Shown: positions 2,532 to 54,786 of the stretch, piece by piece
Layout: each line of letters begins with the position of its first letter
Position numbering within the stretch: position 1 is the first letter of the stretch
IMG/VR virus record: IMGVR_UViG_3300045988_106581
Length of the DNA stretch: 64,000 nt
From: a virus
Reading direction: 5' to 3' (one strand)
Position numbers and translations under genes: made by a program
Notes under the pieces: model-generated
What the model saw: the letters and a program-made list of their open reading frames with translations, nothing else
What the model was told of the DNA's origin: nothing
Database searches by the model: none

Positions 2532-3233
2532 TTACTCGGCGGGAACGACCTCCGCCTTTTCTGCCTCTGCCTTCTTACGGCCACGCTTAACAGTAGTCTT
2601 TTTTACAGAATTATCCGGTGCAACAGTCTGTTCACCTGCCATAATAGCCTGCACCTGTACCATCATAGCCTGCATCTGTTTCTGCATTTCAGCCATCTGA
2701 TTCTTTGCAGTTTCAAGCTCTGCCTGAACATTATCAGCAGGCTTGGTCGCAGGTACAACAGACAGCTCACTATTACGCTTGCCAGCACGGAGCTCCTTAT
2801 AACGCTCGTCAATCAGGCGCTTTACCTTAGTAGACAGGTCTTCACCGGCATTGGTCATACGATAAAAACGACCACGAATACGCTCAAACTGAGCGCCATC
2901 CTTAATGTCAATCATACGCTGAAGATTTTCGACAGTGGGATTCAGAATCGCATCATCGATATCTTCAATGAATAAAACATCGTCACCCTTAATGCCAATA
3001 GCATCGAAAATTTCATTCTGCTCTTCAGGGCGAAAACGCAGAACACCATTCTTGAACGCAGAACAAGTGCTGTTCATATACATGATCTCTTCCGGCGGAA
3101 TAGGAATCACACAAGGCTCTTCCACACTACCGGGCTCGAAAGTATAGCCCTTACCGTTCAGTGACGAAATGGTAACCACGTTATCGTCGCAGTTCAGAAC
3201 GTCAATAAACTTCTTTTCCATCACGGAACTCAT
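2532..3233 (-). CDS. hypothetical structural-module protein with a K/A/E-rich C-terminus (233 aa)
   Basis: ORF track. It lies immediately downstream of the capsid gene and its terminator. Confidence 0.55.
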   Translation of the reverse strand: MSSVMEKKFIDVLNCDDNVVTISSLNGKGYTFEPGSVEEPCVIPIPPEEIMYMNSTCSAFKNGVLRFRPEEQNEIFDAIGIKGDDVLFIEDIDDAILNPTVENLQRMIDIKDGAQFERIRGRFYRMTNAGEDLSTKVKRLIDERYKELRAGKRNSELSVVPATKPADNVQAELETAKNQMAEMQKQMQAMMVQVQAIMAGEQTVAPDNSVKKTTVKRGRKKAEAEKAEVVPAE

Positions 3234-3250
3234 AATTTTGTCTCCTTTTC

Positions 3251-3279
3251 TATAAAAGCGGAGACCGCAAAGTCTCCGC
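3251..3279 (-). terminator. rho-independent terminator after the capsid gene
   Basis: On the minus strand: GCGGAGAC-tttgcg-GTCTCCGC followed by TTTTATAG. Confidence 0.7.
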
Positions 3280-3311
3280 CCAGATTTGCCTTTGGTAAAA
3301 CTAATGATTTA

Positions 3312-4310
3312 TCACTTAGACAGGACAATCTTAGCCACACGCTCAGGATGAGCAATGCTATAACCATAAGAGAAGTCCTTCAGCATCAGGTGAACCTTCT
3401 CGTTGTTGTTGTCGTAATCCTCGTAAGTATGAGTCTCACCCTTCATGTCAAGGTTACCCACGACACCAGCAATACCGAAGATGCGCTTGTCTGGGATCAG
3501 CATAGAGCCATCGCCAAGACGCTTTGCGGAGCTGACACCAGTGATAGCCACGCCATCATAGGTCTTAACCAGACCATAACGATTGAACTCGTCCTTAGCT
3601 GCGTCAGACAGGTACTGAGCATAGCCAGTCATACGACGCATCTTAGCACAATACTTCTGCAGGCTGACAGTAAAGGGGTTTGCACCATCTGCATACTCAT
3701 TCAGATACAGAGTCAGAGCATCCATTGCCTCCATAGTGGGCTCTGCACCAGTGACATCAATCTTCTGAGAACCACCAGTGATCATATCATCAACAGTATT
3801 GAAGATATCATAGAACATCTTATTCTTCAGAGACTCGCTCATAAAGGTAGTCAGAGTGGCAATAGACTTCCAACCATTGCGACGAATTTCCATAAACGAA
3901 ATGTCCGTTTCAACCTGAATATTCTTCCAAACAGGCTTAATGACCTCATAGTGCAGGTAGGACTTCGGTACGTTGCCGCCCTTAGCAGCCTCGTGAGCTA
4001 CCAAAGTATTGCGGATTGTACGACCTGCCTGATAATCGTCATTTTCACTGATAGTGCCACGATCAAACATAGCATCCAGCAACTCGTCAGGTGCATTGTA
4101 GGTGTCGTCAGTCACGGTACGATTCACAAACTGTGCAATCTCCTTATCTGGGTCACCCTTGTCAATCAGCTCGTTAATGTGTGCCTCACAAACCTCGGCA
4201 ATCTCCTTGTCCTCGGCATCCATGGGCAGATTATACTGAGTCTTCTCAGCAACACTATAAACACGACCAGGCTTCTTCATCAGCTCGGCCACTTCAATAT
4301 TCAGTGCCAT
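3312..4310 (-). CDS. putative major capsid protein (332 aa)
   Basis: Size and position (portal, then scaffold, then small protein, then this gene), flanked by terminator hairpins. No motif was verified. Confidence 0.6.
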   Translation of the reverse strand: MALNIEVAELMKKPGRVYSVAEKTQYNLPMDAEDKEIAEVCEAHINELIDKGDPDKEIAQFVNRTVTDDTYNAPDELLDAMFDRGTISENDDYQAGRTIRNTLVAHEAAKGGNVPKSYLHYEVIKPVWKNIQVETDISFMEIRRNGWKSIATLTTFMSESLKNKMFYDIFNTVDDMITGGSQKIDVTGAEPTMEAMDALTLYLNEYADGANPFTVSLQKYCAKMRRMTGYAQYLSDAAKDEFNRYGLVKTYDGVAITGVSSAKRLGDGSMLIPDKRIFGIAGVVGNLDMKGETHTYEDYDNNNEKVHLMLKDFSYGYSIAHPERVAKIVLSK

Positions 4311-8107: not shown

Positions 8108-9652
8108 TTAGAAGTCAATGTTAGAAATACAAATCGGCGGAGCAGTCATTGTCTCCACCGCAGACTGGCGCACTTTATCCTTACGACGTAATTCATATAG
8201 ACGATGAGCTAAAAGCACCATTGTGTACGCGCGGTCATCTTTCATTTTATTGGCGCGGTCTGGTGGTAACGCATAAGTTACAGAAGTGTTTTCGGGATTT
8301 GTGGTTTTCTGCATACTTGTAATCTCATTTTTCATAAGGTCAATGTTCACCCATGCCGTTTGCTCATCTAAAGACAGCTCGTGCGTTTTCAAAATTTCCT
8401 GACCAGTTGCCTTATCTACACCATCCACAACCTGAACGTAATCTCCACCGTTATATTCAAGAGGAAAGTGGATAACACCAAGATTCATCAATTCAATAAG
8501 CTCTTCAAACATGATGGAACGAAATTTACGCGGGCTAATCAAACGCAATTTGTCTACGGCGTCAGGATAACGAGCGTCATACCCTTCGTAAAGCTCATGA
8601 TTTGCATCAATAAATCCACGATGTTCTGTGCCGGATTTGTCAGTCCAGTTATTTAGCAAACCGTCTGCATAAGTAGAAGTACCGCCGCCGCCTGCGCCTT
8701 GATCAATCATTAACGAATCAATATACTCATAGTCTGGGTTCTGTCCGTTGTAATGAAGAATCAATTCACGCAACTCCTCGATTTGACGGTTTGAGTCCAT
8801 CTTGTATTTTTTTGAATTCGCTAAATCAACCATATTTACACAGTTGATGATATCGCCGCACATACCATTTTCTGGGTCATTATAAATACGCATAATTGAT
8901 ACGATAGAGTTATCCATAGTACGAGCAGGGTCAAAAGCAATCACATACTTATATTGCTTGTCCCAGTATAACTGCGGTAAGTATTTACGCTCATTACGGC
9001 GAACCGTACCCCACTTAACAATCTGATTTACACCGCCATCGCGGGATGGTTTATTATAATATTCACGCATTGCCTTCTCGTGCGCGGATTTTAAAGCTGC
9101 TTCAACCTTATCTCTTGTAAGCAGAGCTTTGTATGGTTTACCATTCATGTAGACCTGAATTGCAACATCGCAAATCATGTCACAAACAAAATAATCGCGG
9201 TCACCAGCAATCATTCGTTTTGCAAAGTTTTTGTAATACTTATAAAAAAGCTTCTCCATAGTATCTTGACTAGAAGCATATACGAGCTGTGTAGGTACTT
9301 TTCGAGGTTGAGTGTCTGGGTTATAAGAATCATTTGTATCGGTGACGAAATCCGTATTCTGTGTTGCAAAAGCTTCACAAACAGTAATTAACTCATCAGA
9401 GCAAAACGCCGCTTCATCAAAGAACACAAGAGTGGCTCTGCGCGAGCGATTGGCATCCGGATTGGAGTTCAATGTATTTATGGAACTACCGTTATAAAAT
9501 TCAACAACGTACCCGGCGGGATTATGACTAAATCCGCTTTTGTTAGTTGGAGATTTAACAGTTTCTTTTTCTGCAATGTCCGTTAAACTACGAATAGACG
9601 CTGCTGTTTTACCAACACGAGTTACAATTTCTTCTATCTTATTAAAAGTTTC
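8108..9652 (-). CDS. terL: terminase large subunit, exon 2 (Walker B and nuclease domain)
   Basis: The frame is open from 9655. It reads ...ETFNKIEEIVTRVGK...VVEFYNGSSINTLNSNPD...ATLVFFDEAAF (Walker B-like), but has no start codon of its own until the TTG at 9472. Confidence 0.75.
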   Translation of the reverse strand, partial: ETFNKIEEIVTRVGKTAASIRSLTDIAEKETVKSPTNKSGFSHNPAGYVVEFYNGSSINTLNSNPDANRSRRATLVFFDEAAFCSDELITVCEAFATQNTDFVTDTNDSYNPDTQPRKVPTQLVYASSQDTMEKLFYKYYKNFAKRMIAGDRDYFVCDMICDVAIQVYMNGKPYKALLTRDKVEAALKSAHEKAMREYYNKPSRDGGVNQIVKWGTVRRNERKYLPQLYWDKQYKYVIAFDPARTMDNSIVSIMRIYNDPENGMCGDIINCVNMVDLANSKKYKMDSNRQIEELRELILHYNGQNPDYEYIDSLMIDQGAGGGGTSTYADGLLNNWTDKSGTEHRGFIDANHELYEGYDARYPDAVDKLRLISPRKFRSIMFEELIELMNLGVIHFPLEYNGGDYVQVVDGVDKATGQEILKTHELSLDEQTAWVNIDLMKNEITSMQKTTNPENTSVTYALPPDRANKMKDDRAYTMVLLAHRLYELRRKDKVRQSAVETMTAPPICISNIDF

Positions 9653-10060
9653 CGATTATATAAATTAAAATTTAATGTACATCGCAACTGCACACTGCCG
9701 CATAAAACGGCCACACAATTTCTTGTCGTGCGTAGACTATTTCATCATCCAAATATAATTTGGAGCTTGATTTTTCCTCCGCCATAAGCTTGCGGTTTTA
9801 CTCTCCCACAAGGAGATAGTCGTTGAACCTTACCCTGTCATATAGACGTTACGGGCAGTGGCTGCATGAACATGGATTATTACGAGCTTTAGCACGCCAT
9901 AAAACGCTTTTATTTCAGCATAGCTCATCTCTACGTTTTTTCCGCTTTCGCACATTTACGTTTACCGTTTTCGATTCCGCTTTAGTGTAGAGCTTTACCA
10001 ATTACCTGCAATTAACCAAGAAGCACACACACATCTCTGTATATGTGAGGCAACTACCTT
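9653..10060 (-). other. group I intron (no ORF) interrupting terL
   Basis: It separates the Walker A exon from the Walker B exon and carries stop codons. It has an R-like element GGTTCAACGACTAT (reverse complement of 9816-9829) and an S-like element AAATAGTCTACG (reverse complement of 9731-9742), giving the P7 pairing GACTA/TAGTC. The 5' exon ends in U (..CAGAGU) and the intron ends in G (..AAUCG). Confidence 0.65.
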
Positions 10061-10363
10061 ACTCTGGTCACCGACAGATGACACTATATAAATACCCTGA
10101 TTCTCATACAATATAGCCTTTAGTAGAATGAAAACAGAACCTACAAAAGACTTACCAAAGTTTCGACTACACGCCCAAAGAACATGACTTGCATTCCAGC
10201 TTTGTTCCAGCATGTATGCCTGTGCGTCAAATAGTTGAATACCCAATAAATCTCTGGCCGCAATAACAGGATTACGCCGATAGAATGCAATCGTTGCCGC
10301 ATCACACTCGTAAATCTTACGTTTTACGGCAGTAATAATAGGCGCTCTTTGCTTCATTCTCAT
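10061..10363 (-). CDS. terL: terminase large subunit, exon 1 (Walker A)
   Basis: ...LWACSRNFGKSFVGSVFILLKA...IYIVSSVGDQS. After this point the ORF continues into intron sequence and stops. Confidence 0.75.
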
Positions 10364-12022: not shown

Positions 12023-12097
12023 TGGCACGCCCACTCCGAATCCAACAGAGATAAGTGAGTTTAGAGCTCACCGTCTTAGGCATTAAACGATAGGCGC
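12023..12097 (-). tRNA. amber suppressor tRNA, anticodon CTA
   Basis: Acceptor GCGCCTA/TGGGCGT (with G-U pairs) followed by G-CCA. D-arm GTTT/AGAC. Perfect anticodon stem GTGAG/CTCAC with loop C-T-CTA-A-A (anticodon at 12062-12064). T-arm CTCTG-TTGGATT-CGGAG. Confidence 0.75.
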
Positions 12098-12102
12098 ATA
12101 AT

Positions 12103-12179
12103 TGGTGTATCCGGCGAGATTTGAACTCTGCGATACCTCGATTAAAAGTCGAGTGCCTTACCAGCTTGGCTACGAATAC
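12103..12179 (-). tRNA. tRNA-Lys (TTT)
   Basis: Acceptor GTATTCG/CGGATAC followed by A-CCA. Anticodon arm CTCGA-CTTTTAA-TCGAG. The T-stem has one bulged A. Confidence 0.6.
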
Positions 12180-12246
12180 ACAATAAAACCTACCTTTTAG
12201 CCGGTGGTAGGGAACCGGTATAATATAGGCCCTCCGGGAGAAGGAC

Positions 12247-12338
12247 TGGCGCTGCTGATCCGATTCGGACGGATGAATGGGTTTAACCATTGGTGGTGTT
12301 CAGGGCCACTGCGTTAGACCAGACTACGCTACAGCAGC
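12247..12338 (-). tRNA. type II tRNA with a long variable arm, anticodon probably TGA (Ser)
   Basis: Acceptor GCTGCTG/CAGCAGC followed by G-CCA. T-arm ATCCG-TCCGAAT-CGGAT. Variable-arm hairpin AATGG/CCATT. The anticodon loop CCTGAAC has C at position 33, which is unusual. Confidence 0.5.
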
Positions 12339-12404
12339 ATAATAACCCTACTTTCCTGTACAGCTACCTTTATATAAAGGTGTAGGGAATAGCCATACAA
12401 TCTT

Positions 12405-12482
12405 TGGTGATCCAGGTTGGAGTCGAACCAACGATGTTTCTAATGTCACGGAGTTACAGTCCGCTATCTTCGCCACTGGATA
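12405..12482 (-). tRNA. tRNA-Tyr (GTA)-like
   Basis: T-arm GTTGG-TTCGACT-CCAAC, anticodon arm GCGGA-CTGTAAC-TCCGT, encoded CCA. The D-arm is degenerate and pair 1-72 is mismatched. Confidence 0.5.
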
Positions 12483-12723
12483 TACTGACTCATATAAAAC
12501 AAGCATCCATCAAACCATCCGAGCTAAGTTGAATTGTTCTCGTGTTGATAAAACGCTTGTTTTAAACTTTAATGGTCCGCACTTACGGTGGCGGAACACC
12601 TGATGTTTTAAATCGCGCACTGACACGGCGCAATGCGATTGGCTTGGCATTTTGCTCCTCGAAGCTACTCTGCGTCTGACTTTACAGCTTATACACGGTT
12701 GCAACCAATGACCGCTTTCGCCA

Positions 12724-12794
12724 TGCCACCTACAGGAATCGGACCCGTATGTGAAAATTACAAATTTCCCATTCTACCATTAAATTAAGGCGGC
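12724..12794 (-). tRNA. tRNA-Thr (TGT)
   Basis: Acceptor GCCGCCT/AGGTGGC, anticodon arm GGAAA-TTTGTAA-TTTTC, T-arm ACGGG-TCCGATT-CCTGT. Confidence 0.7.
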
Positions 12795-12921: not shown

Positions 12922-13920
12922 TTAATTCAAACGCACAATATGCGTTTTACTCTCAATCAACTTTCCATCCTTGTCCTGATAGACAACAATGAAACCCTCT
13001 CGCTGCGGAGTGGTCAGTTTACCGTCTGCATACTCCATTTTTGAAGTATCACAACAACAGCCCTGCTCGTATAGATTGTACTTTCCAACAGAATAAGAGC
13101 CGACACGATGTACATGACTCATAACCAGCGAATCAAAATCAAGTCCAATATCCTGAAAATAGCGTAGCGCTTTTTCACTTGTTTTCAAAATTCCAGATGA
13201 GAATGCCATAGGATGACACAGAACAGTGCTTCCTATCTGGCTGTACCAACTGTCATTGTAAATGATTTCAATTCCTTCTGCGCTAAACACCTCAATCAAA
13301 GGATCATAATGAACCTTTGTATGAAGCTCCTTGTTATAATGGTTAAATCCATCAATAAGAATAAGTTCAAGTGCAGTCTTCGGCATTAAGGCGAGAAGAT
13401 CCTCGTCAATGTTCTTGGCAAGATAATTCTGGAAACGAATATCATGATTGCCGTAATTGACCACAACCTTTTTAGGCCGTAGCATTTCAATCAGGTCAAT
13501 CAAATACCGTCTTGCCAACAGAATTTCATCCATTGGACTTTGCCGATACACACGCGAAAAACGCGACAGGGCAGCGGCATCTACGCAATCTCCGTTTACC
13601 TGAAGGATATCAATCTTGCCAGCGTACTCACTAAAAGTCTCAATAGGCTTCTGGAATGGAATATGTAGATCGGAAATAGACAGAATGCAGGTTCCTACAT
13701 CTCTATTAAATAATGACTCCTGATACTGCATACCCGCACGGAATGCCTTAAAACGCTTGCGATATGCACACTCACCAAAATTCTTGCCCAACTCATCATT
13801 GAGCACCTTGGATGCACCATCCCAAGTCAACTCTCTAGCCAGAACAGCATTCCCGATTCTTACAAAGAAGTCATCGCTCGTTTCTTCTGGCCGTTTATTA
13901 TAGCAACCCATTGGCATCAA
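12922..13920 (-). CDS. calcineurin-like metallophosphoesterase
   Basis: Motifs SDLHIPF, NGDCVD, GNHD and SHVH occur in the canonical order. Confidence 0.65.
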   Translation of the reverse strand: MMPMGCYNKRPEETSDDFFVRIGNAVLARELTWDGASKVLNDELGKNFGECAYRKRFKAFRAGMQYQESLFNRDVGTCILSISDLHIPFQKPIETFSEYAGKIDILQVNGDCVDAAALSRFSRVYRQSPMDEILLARRYLIDLIEMLRPKKVVVNYGNHDIRFQNYLAKNIDEDLLALMPKTALELILIDGFNHYNKELHTKVHYDPLIEVFSAEGIEIIYNDSWYSQIGSTVLCHPMAFSSGILKTSEKALRYFQDIGLDFDSLVMSHVHRVGSYSVGKYNLYEQGCCCDTSKMEYADGKLTTPQREGFIVVYQDKDGKLIESKTHIVRLN

Positions 13921-14147: not shown

Positions 14148-14882
14148 TTAGCGATTAAACTGAATCATATCCGCCCATGTACTAATCCATCCACGATGAT
14201 TTGTGTGAAGTTCACAAATCGCAGTTCTATCATGACCTCTAAAGTGTTCAAGATATGGAAGGAAACCACTGTTTTGCGGATTTTTGTACAAGTCACACTG
14301 GCCTGTATGACCGATTACGACAAGTTTACATGAATCCTTCAACCGGGTAATAACCTTCAAAAGATCACTTAGATAGAAATTCTGCGTTTCATCGAGCAAG
14401 ATTACTTTTTTGTCAAAGGTGATGCCGCGCATATATGTGTGAGTTGCACACTGAATATACGCACCATATTTCTGACTTTCAGGATTATCATCAACAATCA
14501 TCGCAACATTTGGATTAACGCCAATAGTCTCAAGTGCCTGATAAAGTGGTTCCATATACGGAGCACTCTTCTGTTCCTGCGTGCCTGGAAGATAGCCTTG
14601 CTTCTCTTCCTGTGTAGGAGAAACAATATATGCGATACCATTATATAGTCCATACTGAACTAACAAATTCGCCACACCGACAGCAATCGTAGTCTTACCA
14701 GTACCAGCACGGGCATTACAGAACACAACATCAATATCGGGATTCCAGATTGCGTCCCTAAAGATTTTCTGTTCAGGATCGAGCGTCATTCCATAAAAAG
14801 TAGGATATTCATCCAGATTCTGCGGGACATCCTTCTTCTTACGCATTTCAGTCTTATCAGAAGCCATATATTTACTCCCCAT
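14148..14882 (-). CDS. phoH: PhoH-like ATPase
   Basis: Walker A ARAGTGKTT, Walker B ILLDETQN and GHTGQCD. Confidence 0.7.
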   Translation of the reverse strand: MGSKYMASDKTEMRKKKDVPQNLDEYPTFYGMTLDPEQKIFRDAIWNPDIDVVFCNARAGTGKTTIAVGVANLLVQYGLYNGIAYIVSPTQEEKQGYLPGTQEQKSAPYMEPLYQALETIGVNPNVAMIVDDNPESQKYGAYIQCATHTYMRGITFDKKVILLDETQNFYLSDLLKVITRLKDSCKLVVIGHTGQCDLYKNPQNSGFLPYLEHFRGHDRTAICELHTNHRGWISTWADMIQFNR

Positions 14883-15505
14883 TAGTTAAACTCATCCACA
14901 TCATCGCAAATCTTATCTACGATACCAAAGTTGACCTGCTCATTAGCATCCAGATACCAATCCTTAGCCTTATTTTTGGTCATGGTCTTCTTATCAATAG
15001 TAGAGTGAGCCATAATATACTCACGCATCTTCACAACCTGCTTCTCATAGTAGTCCATAGCCATCTTAGACTGCTCGAAAGTACCCTGAGTACCGCCAGA
15101 GCCACTGTGAATCAGCGCGGTAGAGTGAGGCAGGGCGAAGCGCTTCTGACCAGACAACAACATTACAAGAGCAGCACTCATTGCAATACCTGCGTTGATC
15201 GTCCAAACAGGAGTCTTACTCAGCGCAACAACATCAATAAAGCTGAACATTGCATCCAGCTCGCCGCCGTAGCTGTAAATAAACAGCTTAATAGGCTTGC
15301 GCTGCTCAACAGGAGTATCCTTATCAATACGGTTATACTGCAGAATCTTTCGCTCAATTTCAATCAGAGATTGGTCAATCTCAAAGTCGATAAAGAAGAT
15401 GCGATCCTTCTCATCGACATAGAAATTCATCATCTCAGGAGAGGGGAGACCGCCACCATTCATCAGGTTGGTGATCTCTTCTGGCAGTTGAATTTCAAAG
15501 TCCAA
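14882..15505 (-). CDS. ClpP-like serine protease (S14 family)
   Basis: GIAMSAALVMLLSG (Ser), ALIHSGSGG (His) and C-terminal ..GIVDKI. Overlaps phoH through an ATGA. Confidence 0.65.
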   Translation of the reverse strand: MDFEIQLPEEITNLMNGGGLPSPEMMNFYVDEKDRIFFIDFEIDQSLIEIERKILQYNRIDKDTPVEQRKPIKLFIYSYGGELDAMFSFIDVVALSKTPVWTINAGIAMSAALVMLLSGQKRFALPHSTALIHSGSGGTQGTFEQSKMAMDYYEKQVVKMREYIMAHSTIDKKTMTKNKAKDWYLDANEQVNFGIVDKICDDVDEFN

Positions 15506-15858: not shown

Positions 15859-16614
15859 TCATAAATCAAACATTTTTCTATTTTGTGCGGTTTTCTCAAT
15901 ATTTACGTTTTTAGCGCACTTACGACAGTATTTTTGCCTACGTCCGGTGCGAGCAACCATCTTCCCGCAACAATCACACTTGATGTATTCTTTCCCACAA
16001 TACTGACTCCACAGAATGCCAGCATTCTCAAAATCGTCCACAAAAATCTCATGAGAAGAGTCCGGCTCCGCAATCAAAACATGGATATTCAAGTTGTCAA
16101 TCTTTTTCAAGCTTGCAAACCCAATAAAACCAAGATTATGTAACTCGCAAATCATCTCGTTCTGTTTTTTCTCATTCACGGATATGTTTGCCATCCTGAA
16201 AATATCAGCCGTATCTTCCGTAATCCAGTAGTTGCATTTTTCATTAACAGCAATATGGTATTTTGCCAGACACAGCATCGTGAACATCAGGCGTTGCATC
16301 TGCTTGCTTTCAAGTGCTTGAATCTTCTCTACCTCAGCCTTCGTAATGCACACACCATCAAGTTCGACCATAGGACGACCTTTAGCAGAAGCAATCGCTT
16401 TATCAATCAATTCTCTATCCAGAACCTTGTTGTATCCTTCAAAATGACGCAGCATATACTCGTTAAGCTTTTCTCTTACGTCATCCTTTGAGTATCCCTT
16501 ATAGAAATAGTATTTCGCAACATAATGCAAAACATGCCCCGCTTTCTTCCAAGGCACATCCTTCTCTAGCCACTCTTCAGCGTAAAGAACTTCATTCAAT
16601 ACAATCATCCGCAT
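15859..16614 (-). CDS. hypothetical protein with a C-terminal zinc ribbon (251 aa)
   Basis: ORF track. C-terminal CDCCGK...YCRKCAKN. Confidence 0.55.
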   Translation of the reverse strand: MRMIVLNEVLYAEEWLEKDVPWKKAGHVLHYVAKYYFYKGYSKDDVREKLNEYMLRHFEGYNKVLDRELIDKAIASAKGRPMVELDGVCITKAEVEKIQALESKQMQRLMFTMLCLAKYHIAVNEKCNYWITEDTADIFRMANISVNEKKQNEMICELHNLGFIGFASLKKIDNLNIHVLIAEPDSSHEIFVDDFENAGILWSQYCGKEYIKCDCCGKMVARTGRRQKYCRKCAKNVNIEKTAQNRKMFDL

Positions 16615-19375
16615 CCTCCTTGCTATTCATGTTAACCAACACATCCTTGAAACGCTTACCATCATATTCAATATCGCCATTCTCATCCTGCACAAGAGAA
16701 TGAATCATACCGTCATGGCGTTCTAACAAGCGTTTAATCAAAGTATCGTGAAATAGTTCCCAGACTATTGCAATACTGGATGCATTTTTCTTACAAAGAT
16801 CAAGCATGATGTCGCAAAGTACATCGTCATTAGAACACTTGTCATGAAGATTGCGGAACATACTTTCCTGATACAGCGCAATGCGCTCCCTGCGGTCTGC
16901 GCCGGTTTCTTTATTATTGTTTCCGTTACCAGAATGGATTGCGTTACCACGAGCAAACCTCAAGTAATCCTTAAAAATAGAGCGGATACCATAGTATTGA
17001 GAGCTGGTATACTCCACACCAGACTTGAGTGAGTCGTAATCAAACTTGCGCCTTATCTTGAGTTCTTCTTCAAAATCTTCCAGCTCGTCCTCAACAGTCC
17101 AGCACAGGCGGTTCATGGTACAAGAATTGATTCCGACCGGCATCCGATAAAGGTAATACTGGATAACCATTTCATCCACATCGTCCTTGACGGTCTTTTG
17201 CATAATCTCATCCAGACCGGCAAACCCATCCCACTTGATGCGCTTGCGAGCTGCGGCCACATACTGCTTGTAATCACGCATCTGGGCAGGGTAGATGTAG
17301 CTCATAAAGTACGGCTTACGCCATGCGCAAATACTACTCCAGAACTTCTTATCCTCGATAGTATCAGGATTATCATCGTCTTTAACGGTGCAAGCTTTAT
17401 TGTCGTACCAGTATTGCGGCATATCTGTCGTAGCTACGCCTTTTATTTTGTCAATCGCGTTCTGCTGATAAAGCTGTCCGCAGATAATGCGATACGTAAG
17501 TTCATCGTACTCTTTACTACCTTGCTCAAATTTACTTCGCACATCAAACATCGTTGTAATTCGGTTTGTTGTGCGTCCAATATTATCTCCAAATCCGCTG
17601 ATATTAGATTCAATAAAATCCTTTTCGGTCGGAACTTTTTTCTCGCATTTGCGCTGGACACAAAGAACGACCGGCTCATTTACCCATTTATCAATGAGAA
17701 CTCTATTGTCGGTAGAAAATGTAAGGTCGGCATCGAAATCTTCACCGTTAAGTGCTGCACACATATTATCCCACGCATTGGTGATAAACACGGACTTCAT
17801 ATAGCGATACCAGTATTGGCAATCATCAGATACATTCAAATTCATGCACCGAATATTTGCCATCTGACTCATAGGAGCTCTAAAACAAGCAACCCTCTTA
17901 ACGTCTCTATCATTCCAAAAACGACTGTAAACCTCACCGGCCTTCAATAGTCCGGTTACCTCCATCCGAAACATAGACTGGCAAAGCGCATATGGATCGC
18001 CACTCGCAACTTGAAAATTCCCTCGTACCTTTACAACACCCGTTTTTGCCTGAGAGATTCGCTTTTTAATAAAGTACCGAATTCGATTCTGCACATAAGG
18101 GTCGTTGATCATTTCTGGCTCAATCATAAGAGCCTTAATATAGTCGTTTTCCAAACTGTTTATGTAATTTGGGTCATCACGCATTCCGCTACCACGCAGG
18201 TACAACAGCGCATCACGCCAATCACCGCCCATAACGCCCTTAATCTCGTCTAAGGTTGGTTTCACAAGCTCACAAATCTCATCATTCGTAAGCTGATAGC
18301 TTTGGATAAACTGATAATTCAGATTGCGCTCCTCATCAAGCTCCAACTCACAAGTCTTGGTTACAGAGAAGTGATAGTGGTTCTCTCTACAGTTTTCAAG
18401 ATAGTCCTCACAACTATGGTAACTATCCCAGAGCTTTAGCATAGAGGTGCTAAGAACGACCTGAATTCTATTGATGTCGCGATAATCTCCCCATGCGTCC
18501 TTTAACATATTCTGTTTTGCTACCTTCTTAGCGAACTCACGAAAAGGGAAGGGGAATAACATACCTTTGCAGAACGCATTTCGCACACAGAAGCCAGACG
18601 CGGTGGATGGAAGTTTCAGATCCTCACTCCACTGTTGTGCAAGATCATAACTAATAAGTCCAAACCCATCATTCGCACACAGTTCACAATCATGTTCATT
18701 ATCTTCAACTATCGTAGGTTCTCCAGATACTCCGTCATCCAGAACAACAACATGGTCTTTAAAATGCGTATAACAGTCATCAACAACAAGCACACCATCA
18801 GGGTCAGTAACCGGAATAGAAGCAGAGCAGGCAAGCGCTCTATAAGCCTCTAATTTTGCAGGTACAAACTCCATTCCTTTATTACGGCCATTATCAATTC
18901 GCTTGCGGATTTCGTCAACAAGACGGTCACTCACAAACACAATCGTACTGTTTTTAACACCACCGGTAGTCCCAACCAGACGTCGATACGTAATTCCATT
19001 GATTTTAAATCCCTTGGGAGAACACGCCCGGCGGTAATCATTCTTCTTATCAACCACCAAACACATATAATCCGGCTTAAACTGAACTGCATCCAGCTCA
19101 GTGTATAATCTCCGAATCTCCCGGCGGTTCTCCAAGCAAGATGGTTCATTCCGCAGCATTTTGATTCTACGCTTGATACTCCGTGCTTTAGCCTCTGCGT
19201 CCGTAACACCATTCAACTCATCAATCCATCGTAGAACAGTGCTATCAGCCAACGAGATAATCTCGTGATTTCGTCTGGCTTCATCTAATGGTAGGGTTAA
19301 ATCCCATTTTGCTTCAACCAGACGCTTCGTATGGATCTTAAAAACAAACTTCTGGCAAGTTTGCTGCTTTGCCAT
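16592..19375 (-). CDS. YonO/RdRP-like single-subunit two-barrel RNA polymerase (927 aa)
   Basis: ACFRAPMSQMANI...ITNAWDNMCAALNGEDFDADLTFSTDN resembles the R.P...(hhh)..GGDxDGD..(F/Y)..WD catalytic loop of YonO and cellular RdRPs. All three Asp residues are retained and the Gly is replaced by Ala. Confidence 0.6.
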   Translation of the reverse strand: MAKQQTCQKFVFKIHTKRLVEAKWDLTLPLDEARRNHEIISLADSTVLRWIDELNGVTDAEAKARSIKRRIKMLRNEPSCLENRREIRRLYTELDAVQFKPDYMCLVVDKKNDYRRACSPKGFKINGITYRRLVGTTGGVKNSTIVFVSDRLVDEIRKRIDNGRNKGMEFVPAKLEAYRALACSASIPVTDPDGVLVVDDCYTHFKDHVVVLDDGVSGEPTIVEDNEHDCELCANDGFGLISYDLAQQWSEDLKLPSTASGFCVRNAFCKGMLFPFPFREFAKKVAKQNMLKDAWGDYRDINRIQVVLSTSMLKLWDSYHSCEDYLENCRENHYHFSVTKTCELELDEERNLNYQFIQSYQLTNDEICELVKPTLDEIKGVMGGDWRDALLYLRGSGMRDDPNYINSLENDYIKALMIEPEMINDPYVQNRIRYFIKKRISQAKTGVVKVRGNFQVASGDPYALCQSMFRMEVTGLLKAGEVYSRFWNDRDVKRVACFRAPMSQMANIRCMNLNVSDDCQYWYRYMKSVFITNAWDNMCAALNGEDFDADLTFSTDNRVLIDKWVNEPVVLCVQRKCEKKVPTEKDFIESNISGFGDNIGRTTNRITTMFDVRSKFEQGSKEYDELTYRIICGQLYQQNAIDKIKGVATTDMPQYWYDNKACTVKDDDNPDTIEDKKFWSSICAWRKPYFMSYIYPAQMRDYKQYVAAARKRIKWDGFAGLDEIMQKTVKDDVDEMVIQYYLYRMPVGINSCTMNRLCWTVEDELEDFEEELKIRRKFDYDSLKSGVEYTSSQYYGIRSIFKDYLRFARGNAIHSGNGNNNKETGADRRERIALYQESMFRNLHDKCSNDDVLCDIMLDLCKKNASSIAIVWELFHDTLIKRLLERHDGMIHSLVQDENGDIEYDGKRFKDVLVNMNSKEDADDCIE

Positions 19376-51694: not shown

Positions 51695-51778
51695 GGGGAT
51701 ATGGTGAAATGGCAGCCACGCTGGTTTCAAGTCCCAGTGTCGAAAGACGTATCGGTTCAAATCCGATTATCCCTACCA
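51695..51778 (+). tRNA. tRNA-Leu (CAA)
   Basis: Acceptor GGGGATA/TATCCCT followed by A-CCA. Loop TT-CAA-GT. Long variable arm. T-arm ATCGG-TTCAAAT-CCGAT. Confidence 0.75.
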
Positions 51779-51978
51779 TGAAGATCAGTTGGTTTAGCTC
51801 GCGCAAGAGAAAACATGTGCCTTGGCGAACGACAAAGTGTGAATACCGGTTGATACACACAAGCCCTACCGGAGACGAATAAGGTGAAAGTTGGTTGGCC
51901 ACCGGCTGAATAGACTCCAATCCGCTAGAAAACTAAACCATAAAACGAACGTTAGGCTGTTTCTGATCTTCTATATAA

Positions 51979-52062
51979 GCCACCGTGGTGAAATTGGCAG
52001 GCACGAGGGACTTAAAATCCCTTTCTGGCAACAGAGTACGGGTTCAAATCCCGTCGGTGGCA
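51979..52062 (+). tRNA. tRNA-Leu (TAA)
   Basis: Acceptor GCCACCG/CGGTGGC. Anticodon arm AGGGA-CTTAAAA-TCCCT. Long variable arm. T-arm ACGGG-TTCAAAT-CCCGT. Confidence 0.8.
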
Positions 52063-52069
52063 TTTATAT

Positions 52070-52145
52070 CCGGGTGTAGCTCAGTTGGAAGAGCGCGTGC
52101 TTTGGGAGCATGAGGCCGCAGGATCATGACCTGTCACTCGGACCA
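52070..52145 (+). tRNA. tRNA-Pro (TGG)
   Basis: Acceptor CCGGGTG/CACTCGG followed by A-CCA. Anticodon arm CGTGC-TTTGGGA-GCATG. Confidence 0.75.
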
Positions 52146-52150
52146 TATAA

Positions 52151-52224
52151 TGCGTCGTAGCCAAGCGGTTAAGGCAGGGTCCTTTGAAGTCCCGATTGCG
52201 AAAGTTCGATTCTTTCCGGCGCAA
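52151..52224 (+). tRNA. tRNA-Gln (TTG)
   Basis: Acceptor TGCGTCG/CGGCGCA. Loop CT-TTG-AA. T-arm GAAAG-TTCGATT-CTTTC. Confidence 0.75.
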
Positions 52225-52258
52225 TAACGAATAAAACGTACAGGAAGTGGAAATGTAA

Positions 52259-53011
52259 GTGGCGTTAATTGATTTATATTCAAAAGAGGAACTAAAGACA
52301 ATAGTTGAAAATTCTTACTCAATAGCAGAGATTATTAGGAAGTTGGGATATTCAACGAATTCCGGAAATAATAATCAGACTATTAAGTCTCGTATAAAAG
52401 AATACGAAATTGACACGTCTCATTTCAGACATCAAAATTGCACAAAGAGATCACCGGAAAATATTTTCGTTGAGAACTCAACAGCAAAGCAATCAGTTCT
52501 GCGACGTTGGTATAAGAAAGGTAATTATTCTCAATATGTATGTTCTATTTGTGGTTTGCTTCCAGAATAGAATGATAAACCATTGACTTTGATTCTCGAC
52601 CATATCAACGGAAAAAATAAAGATGATAGGATTGAAAATCTTAGATGGGTCTGTCCCAATTGTAATCAACAATTAGACACAACTGGATACAAGAATCCAA
52701 ATCGAGCAGTATCTGCGAGAAGAGTTTATGAAAGACGTACTGTTGAAAAGAAAATCTGTCCTAGATGTGGCTCGTCAATGAGTTATAATGCCGACATGTG
52801 TAAATCATGTTGGGAAGTAGAGAAAAAATCAAAAAAGAAACCTTCACGTGACATTTTAAAGAGCTTAATTCATACAAAGGGCTTTATGGAAATTGGAGAT
52901 GAATATGGCGTAACAGATAGAGCTGTTGCAAAATGGTGCAGATCTGAAGGGTTGCCATATCGAATGACGGACATTAAGAAAATTCCTGATGAAGAGTGGG
53001 AGAAATTATAA
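52259..53011 (+). CDS. HNH homing-type endonuclease with an in-frame TAG (52568-52570). Either a pseudogene or read through
   Basis: ORFs 52259..52570 and 52583..53011 are in one frame. The junction reads ..CSICGLLPE-TAG-NDKPLTLILDHINGKNKDDRIENLRWVCPNCN, so the HNH core lies just after the TAG. Confidence 0.6.
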
Positions 53012-53071
53012 TGTACATATTTTATTTTGGTGAGTCTCCGCCTTGAATTGCAAGGCATCCTCGATTTATAT

Positions 53072-53153
53072 GCGGATATGGTGGAATGGCAGACACGCCA
53101 GACTTAGGATCTGGTGCTTCGGCGTGTGGGTTCGATGCCCACTATCCGCACCA
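53072..53153 (+). tRNA. tRNA-Leu (TAG)
   Basis: Acceptor GCGGATA/TATCCGC followed by A-CCA. Anticodon arm CCAGA-CTTAGGA-TCTGG. Long variable arm. Confidence 0.8.
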
Positions 53154-53254
53154 CGGTCATGAATCGTTGTTGTTCATGGTTGAACTCCTTTGACCACTAT
53201 TATTCCCAGCTCGCCAGTGATGGTGCAGTAGTGCTTTGCAAGCTGGGTTTTCAT

Positions 53255-53329
53255 GCAGCGGTCGTATAACGGTTAGTACATCGTCCTTCCAAGTCGATGG
53301 AGTGGGTTCGATTCCCATTCGCTGCTCCA
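53255..53329 (+). tRNA. tRNA-Gly (TCC), copy 1
   Basis: Acceptor GCAGCGG/TCGCTGC followed by T-CCA. Loop CT-TCC-AA. T-arm GTGGG-TTCGATT-CCCAT. Confidence 0.7.
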
Positions 53330-53510
53330 ATCTCGTATGGGTAGGATTTTTAGCAGTCAGATCCTGCTGCGCCTGTGCGAGATACCACCCCGAAAGGGGC
53401 TAACGAAATTATCCATGTACGTTATTCTCGGCTCGCTCGAAAGAGTGCAGCGTGCCTTTGCAAGCCGAGCATCCCAGCCTAGTGATGCCAGTTGCTAGGT
53501 TGGTTCTTAT

Positions 53511-53586
53511 GCGACTGTAGTTCAATTGGCAGAGCGTCAGATTTCCAATCTGAATGTTGCGGGATCGTCCCCCGTCAGTCGCTCCA
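53511..53586 (+). tRNA. tRNA-Gly (TCC), copy 2
   Basis: Acceptor GCGACTG/CAGTCGC followed by T-CCA. Anticodon arm TCAGA-TTTCCAA-TCTGA. Confidence 0.7.
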
Positions 53587-53716
53587 CACGCAGCCCCTTA
53601 CGCTGCACCGGTTACTCAGAGCCGAAAGGAACCTATATGTTACGACATGGTTGCCAAGAGTGATCATATTGGAACGCGACGTAGCTTGGATAGTGAGAAT
53701 TAAATTCTGAGGTATA

Positions 53717-53786
53717 CGGCTGGATAGCTTAATGGTAAAAGCGCTCGGAAACACCGAGAGATGAGGTTCGATTCCTCCGCTGGCAT
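53717..53786 (+). pseudogene. degenerate tRNA-like sequence
   Basis: Good D-arm (GCTT-AATGGTA-AAGC) and T-arm (GAGG-TTCGATT-CCTC). However, the anticodon loop has only 5 nt (CTCGG-AAACA-CCGAG) and the acceptor strands do not pair. Confidence 0.3.
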
Positions 53787-53813
53787 CGCGCCGACGAAAG
53801 TCGGCGTTTGCAT

Positions 53814-53890
53814 GGGATAGTAGCTCAGTTGGTCAGAGCTGGCGGCTCATAACCGCTTGGTCGGGAGTTCGAATCTCTCCTGTCCCACCA
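53814..53890 (+). tRNA. tRNA-Met (CAT)
   Basis: Acceptor GGGATAG/CTGTCCC followed by A-CCA. Anticodon arm GGCGG-CTCATAA-CCGCT. T-arm GGGAG-TTCGAAT-CTCTC. Confidence 0.8.
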
Positions 53891-53916: not shown

Positions 53917-54786
53917 CTAGAACTTTTGTTTTAAATTATGTAAGGAGGGATTTTCTGCTAGACAAATCAGCGTCTGGTCTTGCAACGTAGAAATCGTTGC
54001 ACTCAATTCAGTTTGAACCAGAGCACCTTTACCGCCACCTTCACATCCAGAACGGATTTTTAAAGTGTAGGCTGCAGGTTCTGTGCATCGAGTCGAAGTC
54101 TCTCGATGGTCTGACTCCAATACTCGTCCAATTCCTTCTCTTCCAGACCTTCTTGTTCCTTCACTTTCTGCACCACCTGTGACAGAGTTCCTGGATTCCA
54201 CCATTCGATCATATCCAGCAACGCTTGCTTCAGGAGTTCGAGTAAAGGTTTTCCACGCCGGGATGCTCTCACAAGAATCCCCTGACATGCTCGTGCGCTC
54301 AAATAGAATTTCTGAGGCACGTTGTCCTCCAAAATCCATGACAAGCGCGATTCTCTGGCGGCGCTGGGCGACTCCCCAGTATTTAGCGTCGAACAATCTC
54401 CATGCAAGAGACCATCCATTACCGGAAATCGCTCCAGATTTTTCCCACTTTCCGTTCTTTCCTGAAGGTCGAGGAATTGAAACGTCTGGCTCGACAATGC
54501 GTGCAAATCTTTCCAACACACATCTGAAGTCTTCGCCTTTGCTTGAGCTGAAAGCTCCTCTGACATTTTCCCAGATTGCAAATTTTGGATATTCTCCATT
54601 GGTGGCCTCCCTCATTTCTGTAATCACACGAATCATTTCAAGGAACAATCCAGAGCGTTCACCAGCCAAACCTTCACGTTTACCGGCCTGACTCAAATCT
54701 TGGCAGGGACTGCCTCCTGTGATACAGGACACCGGCTCAATCTGCCATCCATGGAGTTGTGTGATATCTCCGTAATGCTTCAGTTT
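53917..54786 (-). CDS. cytosine-5 DNA methyltransferase fragment A (motifs IV-VIII plus the first half of the target-recognition region)
   Basis: ..HYGDIT..GGSPCQDLS (IV), FAIWENVRG (VI), QRRQRIALV (VIII) and GGGKGALVQ..SATISTLQDQTLI. There is no motif I. The frame opens right after a TGA at 54787-54789. The first in-frame canonical start is the GTG at 54732. It ends in TAG. Confidence 0.7.
   Translation of the reverse strand, partial: KLKHYGDITQLHGWQIEPVSCITGGSPCQDLSQAGKREGLAGERSGLFLEMIRVITEMREATNGEYPKFAIWENVRGAFSSSKGEDFRCVLERFARIVEPDVSIPRPSGKNGKWEKSGAISGNGWSLAWRLFDAKYWGVAQRRQRIALVMDFGGQRASEILFERTSMSGDSCESIPAWKTFTRTPEASVAGYDRMVESRNSVTGGAESEGTRRSGREGIGRVLESDHRETSTRCTEPAAYTLKIRSGCEGGGKGALVQTELSATISTLQDQTLICLAENPSLHNLKQKF
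53923..53933. repeat. left arm of the 11-bp inverted repeat (CTTTTGTTTTA)
   Basis: It is the exact reverse complement of 54884-54894 and lies within the last codons of fragment A. Confidence 0.7.

Follow-up and report, generated by a model that had tools for sequence, protein, structure and literature searches.

A probable group I intron of the IStron ribozyme lineage, without an open reading frame, in the gene for the large terminase of an SPbeta-like phage

Introduction

The large-terminase gene (terL) of Lactobacillus phage LL-H is known to carry a group I intron. Introns of this class are also known from the large-terminase genes of Bacillus cereus prophages and of phage K1E (PMC2504315), and terminases have been named as typical intron targets (PMC3984707). 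Here we analyse an insert in the terL gene of a viral DNA of 64,000 nucleotides (IMG/VR record IMGVR_UViG_3300045988_106581; this whole stretch is referred to as the window). We hold with good confidence that the insert is a group I intron of 405 nt and of subgroup IA2, devoid of an open reading frame (ORF) of its own, and that it belongs to the ribozyme lineage of the IS607-type ('group B') IStrons.

Elements of group B integrate behind GG, have a non-exonic U as their first base and CGG as their end (CAG in CsISt1), and have their U-G pair shifted by one base pair to a position next to the loop (PMC4227781). For BcISt1 of B. cereus, sequencing of reverse transcription PCR (RT-PCR) products has established that splicing occurs after G, and the sequenced ligated exons and intron circles place the first U in the intron (PMC4227781). 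The 3' splice sites of IS607 IStrons require a terminal G, mostly in the form of CGG, behind an AT-rich sequence (PMC13521648). According to later work, IS607 IStrons splice in vivo and the 18-20 nt of the right end suffice.

The interrupted terL gene

The terL gene of the window lies on the minus strand and is interrupted by an insert of about 400 nt, which on translation has stops in all three frames. The ORF of exon 1 begins at 10363 (MRMKQ...ACSRNFGKSF...IVSSVGDQSK) and ends at the stop 9995-9997; homology picks up again at ETFNKIEE... (..LVFFDEAAF) and runs to the terL stop at 8108. An original prediction, made from the sequence alone, had described such a split between Walker A and Walker B, and had also stated that no homing endonuclease gene lies inside it. 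Both statements are borne out: the biggest ORFs of the insert encode 37, 41 and 55 aa, and the ORF list holds none of endonuclease size (none above 55 aa) there. With every frame stopped, the insert does not behave as an intein or another in-frame protein insertion. The parts of the gene, all on the minus strand, are as follows.

10057..10363, minus strand: terL exon 1, 307 nt; Walker A SRNFGKS at 10168-10148; ends ...AGU AAG G, intron-less alleles reading AGT AAG GAA ACT
9652..10056, minus strand: probable group I intron (IA2, IStron-type), 405 nt; starts UAGUUG, ends AAUCGG; 41% G+C
8108..9651, minus strand: terL exon 2, 1544 nt with its stop codon; first bases AA ACU UUU; carries Walker B LVFFDE (9430-9413)

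Exons 1 and 2 together make 1851 nt, i.e., 616 aa and a stop. Splicing would thus put Walker A and Walker B on one polypeptide of 616 aa, with the same length and junction as the intron-less alleles. The spliced TerL gives a weak match to Terminase_6N in Pfam (E 1.9e-4) and a clear match to phrog_2 (terminase large subunit) in PHROGs (E 5.5e-17).

Empty sites and splice boundaries

A protein search returned more than 1,200 TerL homologues, the best of which have 616 aa, 100% query cover and the junction ...VGDQ(S/A)-K-E-T-F.... At the DNA level, at least 40 related terL loci are without the insert and read GATCAGAGTAAG-GAAACT at exactly this site (across the junction, GATCAGAGTAAGGAAACTTTT and AGTAAGGAAACT), and intron-bearing loci from Logan, ENA and IMG/VR have it at exactly this point. 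An intron-specific pattern of 22 nt occurs in 31 IMG/VR contigs, in every one of them in terL at this site. When introns of the 10056..9652 type are excised, 23 of 23 intron-bearing coding sequences (CDS) come to 1848 nt, as do 41 empty CDS. Intron-bearing and empty alleles interleave; the exons of intron-bearing L230 are 98.3% identical to empty L005, and those of intron-bearing L219 are 98.0% identical to empty L022. Single-nucleotide polymorphisms specific to alleles exist in the exons, e.g., GGTGACCAGAGTAAGG / AAACTTTTAATAAGATAG.

The 5' flank of the intron-bearing alleles is always ...AAGG^U(A/AA/AG/AAAAA)GUUGCCUC, where the caret marks the boundary. The 3' flank differs by lineage: it is ...AAUCGG^AAACU in the window, ...UUUUGG^AAACU in L001/L215 and ...AUUCAG^AAACU in 19 of 31 alleles. 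The sole G common to these variants (CGG, UGG and CAG) is 9652, which is therefore identified as the omega G; the covariation of 9732 with 9653 in P9.0, described below, fixes omega at 9652 independently. Exon 2 then starts at A9651, and the frame together with the exact sequence AGU AAG GAA ACU puts the end of exon 1 at G10057. The predicted splice sites are G10057^U10056 and G9652^A9651, by which an intron of 10056..9652 would be removed and S-K-E-T restored. The ligated exons would read ...AGUAAGG^AAACU..., or in DNA form ...CAGAGTAAGG^AAACTTTT..., AAGGAAACU. Apart from one A·G mismatch, the ligated junction AGG-A-AACU finds its complement in the guide sequence AGUUGCCU, and this complementarity is contiguous only with splice sites of the form G^U...G^A.

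The proteins agree with this junction. Its Lys is kept in every homologue where the motif is readable (113 of 120 listed), and its Glu is conserved in 109 of the 113 homologues read, with Gln in the remaining four and Val in none. Alternative ligated junctions (AAGGT, 0-3 nt, AACTTTT...) found no match among JGI metagenome contigs; DNA alleles with such junctions are therefore ruled out, although this result says little about RNA.

A side observation concerns a protein of 745 aa from a 5.6-kb ENA contig (P0048), in which an N-terminus resembling a PP-loop ATPase (PF01171) is joined to TerL from ...RSLLDIAEKE, about 20 residues past the intron site. Either a chimeric assembly or a different insertion could account for it.

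Assignment to group I

In E-value mode, cmscan with Rfam RF00028 (Intron_gpI) matched the complete model (positions 1-253) to 10050..9712 of the minus strand. The match scores 35.2 bits, with E-values of 3.8e-7 for a region of 901 nt and 2.7e-5 for the whole window, and is the sole such match in the 64 kb. Its alignment locates P3, P4, P5, P6, the R and S sequences, P8 and P9. The R-like motif GGTTCAACGACTAT is at 9829..9816 and the S-like motif AAATAGTCTACG at 9742..9731; as originally noticed, the two are able to form P7 through GACTA (9821-9817) and TAGTC (9739-9735), which have 77 nt between them. Alignment to the R/S consensus predicts G9821-C9735, beside a bulged C9822, as the guanosine-binding pair.

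The homologues were compared in an alignment (A1) of 20 distinct introns, mostly from one metagenome study (IMG 3300045988) and with a mean column identity of 90%. The group I core P3-P8, with the P3/P7 pseudoknot and the R/S sequences, is present, its helices being 98-100% paired in the 20 sequences. The intron ends in G after P9.0, as is the rule for group I, and this G9652 is invariant in 20/20. The original prediction of a group I intron is supported, and rests on the full-length match to the covariance model, on a covarying IA2 fold, and on the presence/absence polymorphism at one site.

Predicted fold and covariation

The predicted structure comprises the following elements, all on the minus strand. 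MFE stands for minimum free energy.

10048..10059: P1, AGGU 10059-10056 with GCCU 10051-10048; invariant in 20/20; in the RNAalifold and MFE folds
10055-10052: L1, AGUU; P10 half of the internal guide sequence
10024..10047: P2, 10 bp, loop GAGA; L001/L215 shows two compensatory pairs (A-U to G-C, C-G to U-A)
10014..10020: P3 5' strand, CUUGGUU, pairing with 9772-9766; from cmscan; 98.6% of cells paired
10010-10005 with 9869-9863: P4, with a bulged A
10000-9998 with 9875-9873: P5; from cmscan, MFE fold and RNAalifold
9997-9876: P5 extension, 122 nt, several hairpins, the covarying ones at A1 columns 96-107 and 165-176
9827..9862: P6/P6a; one pair occurs as U-A, U·G and C-G, another changes from C-G to U-A
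9817..9823: P7 5' strand, in the R-like motif GGUUCAACGACUA; G9821-C9735 is the predicted G-binding pair
9815-9803: P7.1, a hallmark of subgroup IA; in the MFE fold and RNAalifold
9795-9779: P7.2, a hallmark of subgroup IA; in the MFE fold and RNAalifold
9766..9772: P3 3' strand, AAUCAAG; pseudoknot with P7
9748..9764: P8 hairpin; from cmscan, MFE fold and RNAalifold
9734..9739: P7 3' strand, UAGUCU, in the S-like motif
9732-9731: P9.0, J7/9 half; the 3' half is 9654-9653
9730-9712: P9, with a GAAA loop
9711-9697: P9.1; one pair with a compensatory change
9696-9674: P9.2, loop GUUGCGA; four pairs with compensatory changes
9652..9673: AU-rich 3' tail with CGG at its end; contains the 3' half of P9.0 (9654-9653) and the omega G (G9652)
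9647..9650: P10, exon-2 half AACU, with L1 AGUU; 100% paired; one change from A-U to G·U

On its own, RNAalifold returns P1 (AGGU with GCCU, including the U·G), P2, P6/P6a, P7, P7.1, P7.2, P8, P9 with its GAAA loop, P9.1 and P9.2. The full model of 111 pairs, which includes the P3/P7 pseudoknot, P9.0 and P10, is 98.1% paired in the 20 sequences, and sliding the 3' partners by 1-3 columns drops pairing to 30-43%. Both-sided changes occur in 12 pairs, versus 0-2 when the partners are slid, and in 500 shuffles the observed covariation was never reached. Covariation is found in P2, two hairpins of the P5 extension, P6a, P9.1, P9.2 and P9.0; in the last of these, the pair between J7/9 (9732) and omega-1 (9653) is C-G in 7/20 sequences and U-A in 13/20. 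The core helices that never vary are uninformative on covariation.

The presence of P7.1 and P7.2 with P9.0/P9.1/P9.2 assigns the intron to subgroup IA2, and the helices by which IA2 is recognized (PMC4227781) are those at 9815-9803, 9795-9779, 10047-10024 and 9732-9674. The P5 extension is common to the IStron of Clostridium phage c-st and to Enterococcus phage introns. The predicted 5' splice site falls inside P1 between G10057 and U10056, and the U10056·G10051 wobble closes the loop, as in group B IStrons (PMC4227781). The G at -1 (10057) pairs with C10050, and the invariant U10056·G10051 is one step further into the intron. Two other forms of P1 were tried and rejected: one that takes in CAC at 10047-10045, as these bases covary inside P2, and the 'P1' of cmscan (the hairpin at 10047-10024), with which the splice site would fall in non-homologous codons. 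The T4 td intron, also of subgroup IA2, resembles the window intron in being phage-borne, in having a short P1 (GGGU with GCCU) that leads straight into P2, and in having both P7.1 and P7.2; unlike the window intron, which would be spliced one nucleotide earlier and has no ORF, it is cut behind the wobble U and has the I-TevI gene inserted in P6.

In the mechanism that we propose, the minus-strand terL pre-mRNA would fold into P1-P10, and an external guanosine bound at the P7 pair G9821-C9735 would attack the G10057-U10056 bond, which lies a single nucleotide 5' of U10056·G10051, the wobble closing the P1 loop. The omega G9652, placed by P9.0 (9732-9731 with 9654-9653) and P10 (10055-10052 with 9650-9647), would then occupy the G site, and the 3'-OH of G10057 would attack the G9652-A9651 bond. 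The ligated exons AGU AAG G^AA ACU (S-K-E-T) would give a TerL of 616 aa. Catalysis and the exact splice sites are both proposed here, the splice sites on the strength of comparison with the empty sites and of the verified behaviour of BcISt1 and the Clostridium botulinum and C. senegalense IStrons.

Relationship to group B IStrons

The element AAGG^U...AU-rich-CGG^ fits all of the RNA-level features of group B IStrons listed above. It has a GG-ending site and a first U (AAGG^UAGUUGCCU), and a shifted U·G with its loop (P1 AGGU/GCCU, loop AGUU). Its 3' terminus is AAUCGG, with UGG or CAG in other alleles, the latter as in CsISt1.

Among cultured phages, the best blastn match of the intron is Clostridium phage c-st (NC_007581), whose identity to intron nt 41-327 is 82%. 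The c-st locus has, behind a group I ribozyme, a MerR-resolvase transposase (serine recombinase), TnpB and a RAGATH-18 RNA, and is the IStron CbISt3 (PMC4227781). The closest relative at another site is IMGVR_UViG_3300010347_000355 (L297), with 83% over intron nt 2-338. Here, a decayed IS607-type IStron at 3016-4068 interrupts a gene for a DnaB-like helicase and retains an N-terminal remnant of TnpB (3567-3857; 96 aa, PF12323, E 1.3e-14). The L297 boundaries, CAUAAAGG^U...GGUCGG^UGAUAUA (i.e., AAAGG^U...CGG^), are in frame only with an intronic U, and the frame check of c-st agrees (GGG^...CGG^AUG).

A 34-nt motif spanning P7-P7.1 occurs exactly at 44 bacterial and 45 viral loci, the bacterial carriers including Lysinibacillus, Clostridium, Turicibacter, Erysipelotrichaceae, Pectinatus and Enterococcus columbae. 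Junctions and TnpB genes were counted in 60 of these loci, those beyond the sequences already collected. TnpB lies 250-300 nt downstream in about 38 of the 60, some of which also have TnpA_S. The 5' junction is GG^U in 47 of the 60 (38 TGGG^TAAC, eight AAGG^T and one GGGG^T). Conservation in the motif loci starts at GG, and the exonic GG(G)U pairs with (G/A)CC(C/U). A search with nhmmer against 120 viral loci with the same R motif gave distant core similarity only, and megablast of the terL region against cultured phages gave one tRNA-sized stretch and nothing else. The IStron link places the intron in a transposon-associated ribozyme lineage and not among ordinary homing introns such as that of LL-H.

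With group B IStrons (BcISt1; Tourasse, Stabell & Kolstø 2014, PMC4227781; Žedaveinytė et al., bioRxiv 10.1101/2023.11.20.567912) the window intron shares the IA2 fold with P7.1/P7.2 and P9.0/P9.1/P9.2, the GG-ending site, an exon-final G, a U·G abutting the loop, an AT-rich and CGG end, and no target duplication. Unlike them, it is without the IS607 part (serine transposase, TnpB and omega-RNA), without an AU-rich inverted-repeat stem of 15-34 bp and without GAAYRA after P9.2; it is in phage terL and is found at one site only. Its length is 405 nt versus 482-2582 nt, and its target is AAGG, whereas that of group B IStrons is commonly TGGG or AGGG. In CbISt3 of c-st (ribozyme at 128.2-128.5 kb), the 82% region spans the P5 extension, P7.1 and P7.2, and c-st also has SPbeta-like genes (a YomI homologue); however, CbISt3 has a P1-P2 region that is about 70 nt longer, sits in the hypothetical gene CST134 and possesses transposase, TnpB and RAGATH-18.

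The ORF-less IA2 intron of Turicibacter sanguinis (PMC4227781), compared by description only, is likewise related to group B IStron ribozymes and its homing site (GGAGG) ends in GG, but its 3' end is not of IStron type according to that work, whereas the window intron ends in CGG. The terL introns of LL-H, of B. cereus prophages (term-IVS1/IVS2) and of coliphage K1E (PMC2504315) are also of group IA, in frame and in a conserved terL region; unlike the window intron, they obey the U(-1) rule as far as described, and some have endonuclease genes. Sequence similarity to these terL introns was not detected, none of them being in the blastn list for cultured phages.

Some further relatives came to light. 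In c-st, the GGG^...CGG^ boundaries (L245 2395-4948) join CST134 in frame to an unannotated ORF (L245 4949-5110), and the length of CbISt3 is 2554 nt by these in-frame boundaries versus 2559 nt as published. ORF-less bacterial relatives with GG^U junctions occur in an Enterococcus columbae metagenome-assembled genome (L279), in Pectinatus (L274/L252) and in Erysipelotrichaceae (L248/L260/L275); the P1 of L279, CUAAGG^UGAUUGCCU, is almost identical to that of the window intron. Two human-gut IMG/VR contigs (L298, L304) contain full IS607-type IStrons (TnpA_S and TnpB) with the same P7-P7.1 motif, and the locus stretches compared have no similarity to the window outside the ribozyme.

Absence of mobility functions and possible origin

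The space between P9.2 and the 3' end, where the IS607 component would lie, amounts to only 22 nt. Neither TnpA_S nor TnpB was found in the window by tblastn with the c-st proteins, and Rfam scans of the window gave no omega-RNA (RAGATH-18). The tail at 9673-9652 allows an A-U hairpin of 5 bp at most, and in most alleles not even that, so a long AU-rich stem is absent; nor does GAAYRA follow P9.2 of the window intron. Lacking IS607 genes, stem, GAAYRA and omega-RNA, the element is by definition not an IStron, and we describe it as an intron of the IStron ribozyme lineage that has no ORF. One possible origin is the complete decay of an IStron, with L297 as an intermediate and ORF-less copies of BcISt1 as precedent; another is a free intron of the presumed ancestral kind, with the Turicibacter intron as precedent.

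A Pfam search of ten neighbouring ORFs found no endonuclease domain, nor a TnpA_S or TnpB. The intron-bearing relative L205 has, at 421-1443 and upstream of the yonG-like gene, a free-standing GIY-YIG/NUMOD endonuclease gene. This endonuclease gene is not in L204, and it is absent from the window by tblastn, in which a weak match (E 0.023, 25 aa) to its protein was seen at 54536-54610, just downstream of the second of two tRNA arrays.

Points against the assignment and alternative readings

Several of our own results weigh against the group I assignment or the proposed junction. At the gathering threshold, the Rfam scan found tRNAs and no Intron_gpI match, the 35.2 bits lying under the gathering score of 50 bits; the Infernal scan that had been suggested as a check thus fails by default and succeeds in E-value mode. 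The low score is explained by the large insertions, namely L5 (the P5 extension) and P7.1/P7.2 between P7 and P3', and since the window intron was found only in E-value mode, the default threshold of RF00028 misses this ribozyme lineage. The MFE of the intron is no better than that of shuffled sequences (z -0.81). The homologues are closely related and mostly from one study, hence the covariation events that are independent are few, and the L001/L215 lineage has A·C at one of the P3 pairs. By comparison with the empty sites, the last base of the 5' exon would be G10057 and not, as the group I rule has it, a U paired with a guide G. The argument for this departure leans on one experimentally studied relative (BcISt1) and on frame arguments, and the predicted splice junction comes from DNA comparison.

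The original prediction had placed the splice sites at U10061^A10060 and G9653^G9652 (10060..9653, 408 nt) and held that they obey the group I rules. In the window alone, U(-1) and a terminal G are indeed satisfied and the frame is kept. The product, however, is a TerL of 615 aa (the 614 aa reported with it was a miscount) without the Lys of S-K-E-T, which is present in 113 of the 113 readable homologues (of 120), and the intron-less DNA is AGTAAGGAAACT. Aligning the intron-less homologues, as had been advised, thus gave a clean empty site and in-frame restoration together with an extra Lys, which shifts the boundaries to 10056..9652. Position 10061, the supposed exon-final U, occupies the wobble position of a Ser codon, and 6 of 31 intron-bearing alleles have C there; the supposed terminal G at 9653 is A in 19 of the 31 and covaries with J7/9 as the omega-1 partner in P9.0. 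Just two exon nucleotides would pair with the guide, and CAC covaries within P2. We give these sites almost no credence, and the U(-1) rule appears to be broken as in IS607-type IStrons. A quite improbable variant has the 5' site after the wobble U10056, with the 3' site after A9651 (E to V), C9654 (V inserted) or G9652 (an mRNA with one additional nucleotide and a frameshift at UUU-UAA). It draws on the U10056·G10051 wobble, which is invariant and sits uppermost in P1 like that of T4 td, and, for A9651, on P1 and P10 (AACU with AGUU) being perfectly contiguous and in frame. Nevertheless, A9651 or C9654 would need a terminal A or C/U despite the canonical P7 G-C pair, and models of this kind were rejected as being in conflict with that pair, with the invariant G9652, with the P9.0 covariation or with the conserved K-E; the +1 frameshift rescue at UUU-UAA is unnecessary given the IStron precedent. 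The homologues have Glu in 109 of 113, Gln in four and never Val, such junctions are in no contig of the JGI metagenome collection, and the U is intronic in BcISt1 (PMC4227781) and by the frame check of L297.

It is also very improbable that the insertion is dead, leaving terL a pseudogene or two polypeptides (122 aa and about 454 aa), even though the Rfam score is below threshold, the 5' splice site is non-canonical and gene callers give two ORFs (P0050, P0077). Packaging cannot do without TerL; translation from the earliest start codon in the frame of exon 2 (TTG 9472) would lose 60 conserved residues between ETFNK and Walker B; compensatory changes keep the fold in at least three intron lineages; and the insert is in many large phage contigs (70-139 kb) from several samples. 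An unlikely possibility is that the intron is still mobile as a non-autonomous 'mini-IStron', its DNA being cut out and inserted in trans by an IS607 serine transposase or kept by TnpB-guided homing. Its termini are of the IS607 IStron type (GG target, U first, AT-rich and CGG end), its nearest relatives are IStrons, and intron-bearing and empty alleles interleave with exon identities of up to 98.3% to an empty allele. On the other hand, all 31 IMG/VR copies are at one site, TnpA_S, TnpB and omega-RNA (RAGATH-18) were not found in the window, the long AU-rich stem of inverted repeats and the GAAYRA motif after P9.2, which border the IS part in IStrons (PMC4227781), are missing, and the patchy distribution is explicable by ordinary recombination between co-infecting phages. 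In the same vein, we see a small chance that it is a functional self-splicing transposon remnant comparable to a miniature inverted-repeat transposable element, served in trans by TnpA_S/TnpB of IStrons co-resident in the host or in phages. Mobility of this sort would account for the patchiness among near-identical terL alleles and would give a transposon a safe harbour in a gene essential for packaging.

Significance and phage context

The terL gene of these SPbeta-like human-gut phages of about 120-139 kb is now called as two or three fragments (P0050, P0077 and an exon-1 ORF of 120-122 aa), and recognition of the intron restores a single gene of 616 aa. An ORF-less intron of the IStron ribozyme lineage in this position would add one more natural case to the rare group I introns whose splicing follows a G and whose U·G wobble is moved by one base pair. 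Its 20 sequence variants and many empty sites could help to test the choice of the 5' splice site, which was left open by Tourasse et al. 2014 (PMC4227781). It also links IStron ribozymes to phage structural genes and illustrates the loss of the IS part, with L297 as a decayed intermediate. The lineage itself is already described; the window intron adds an ORF-less member in terL and no new principle.

The genes flanking terL carry YonG_N, YonD_N and YonJ_N domains. Farther upstream, an ORF of 927 aa (16592-19375, minus strand) matches PF05183 (RdRP) with E 4.6e-14 and probably encodes a single-subunit RNA polymerase similar to YonO, as SPbeta-type phages do. These neighbours and the polymerase are the grounds on which we call the phage SPbeta-like. 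Between the polymerase ORF and terL lie the following genes.

14882-15505: ClpP
14148-14882: PhoH
12922-13920: YonJ-like metallophosphatase

Related contigs are 70-139 kb long and come from human-gut metagenomes; no prophages with this TerL were found in GTDB genomes. Rfam identifies the two tRNA arrays at 12026-12794 (minus strand, four genes) and 51695-53887 (plus strand, nine genes), the first of which begins some 500 nt upstream of the yonG-like gene ahead of terL.

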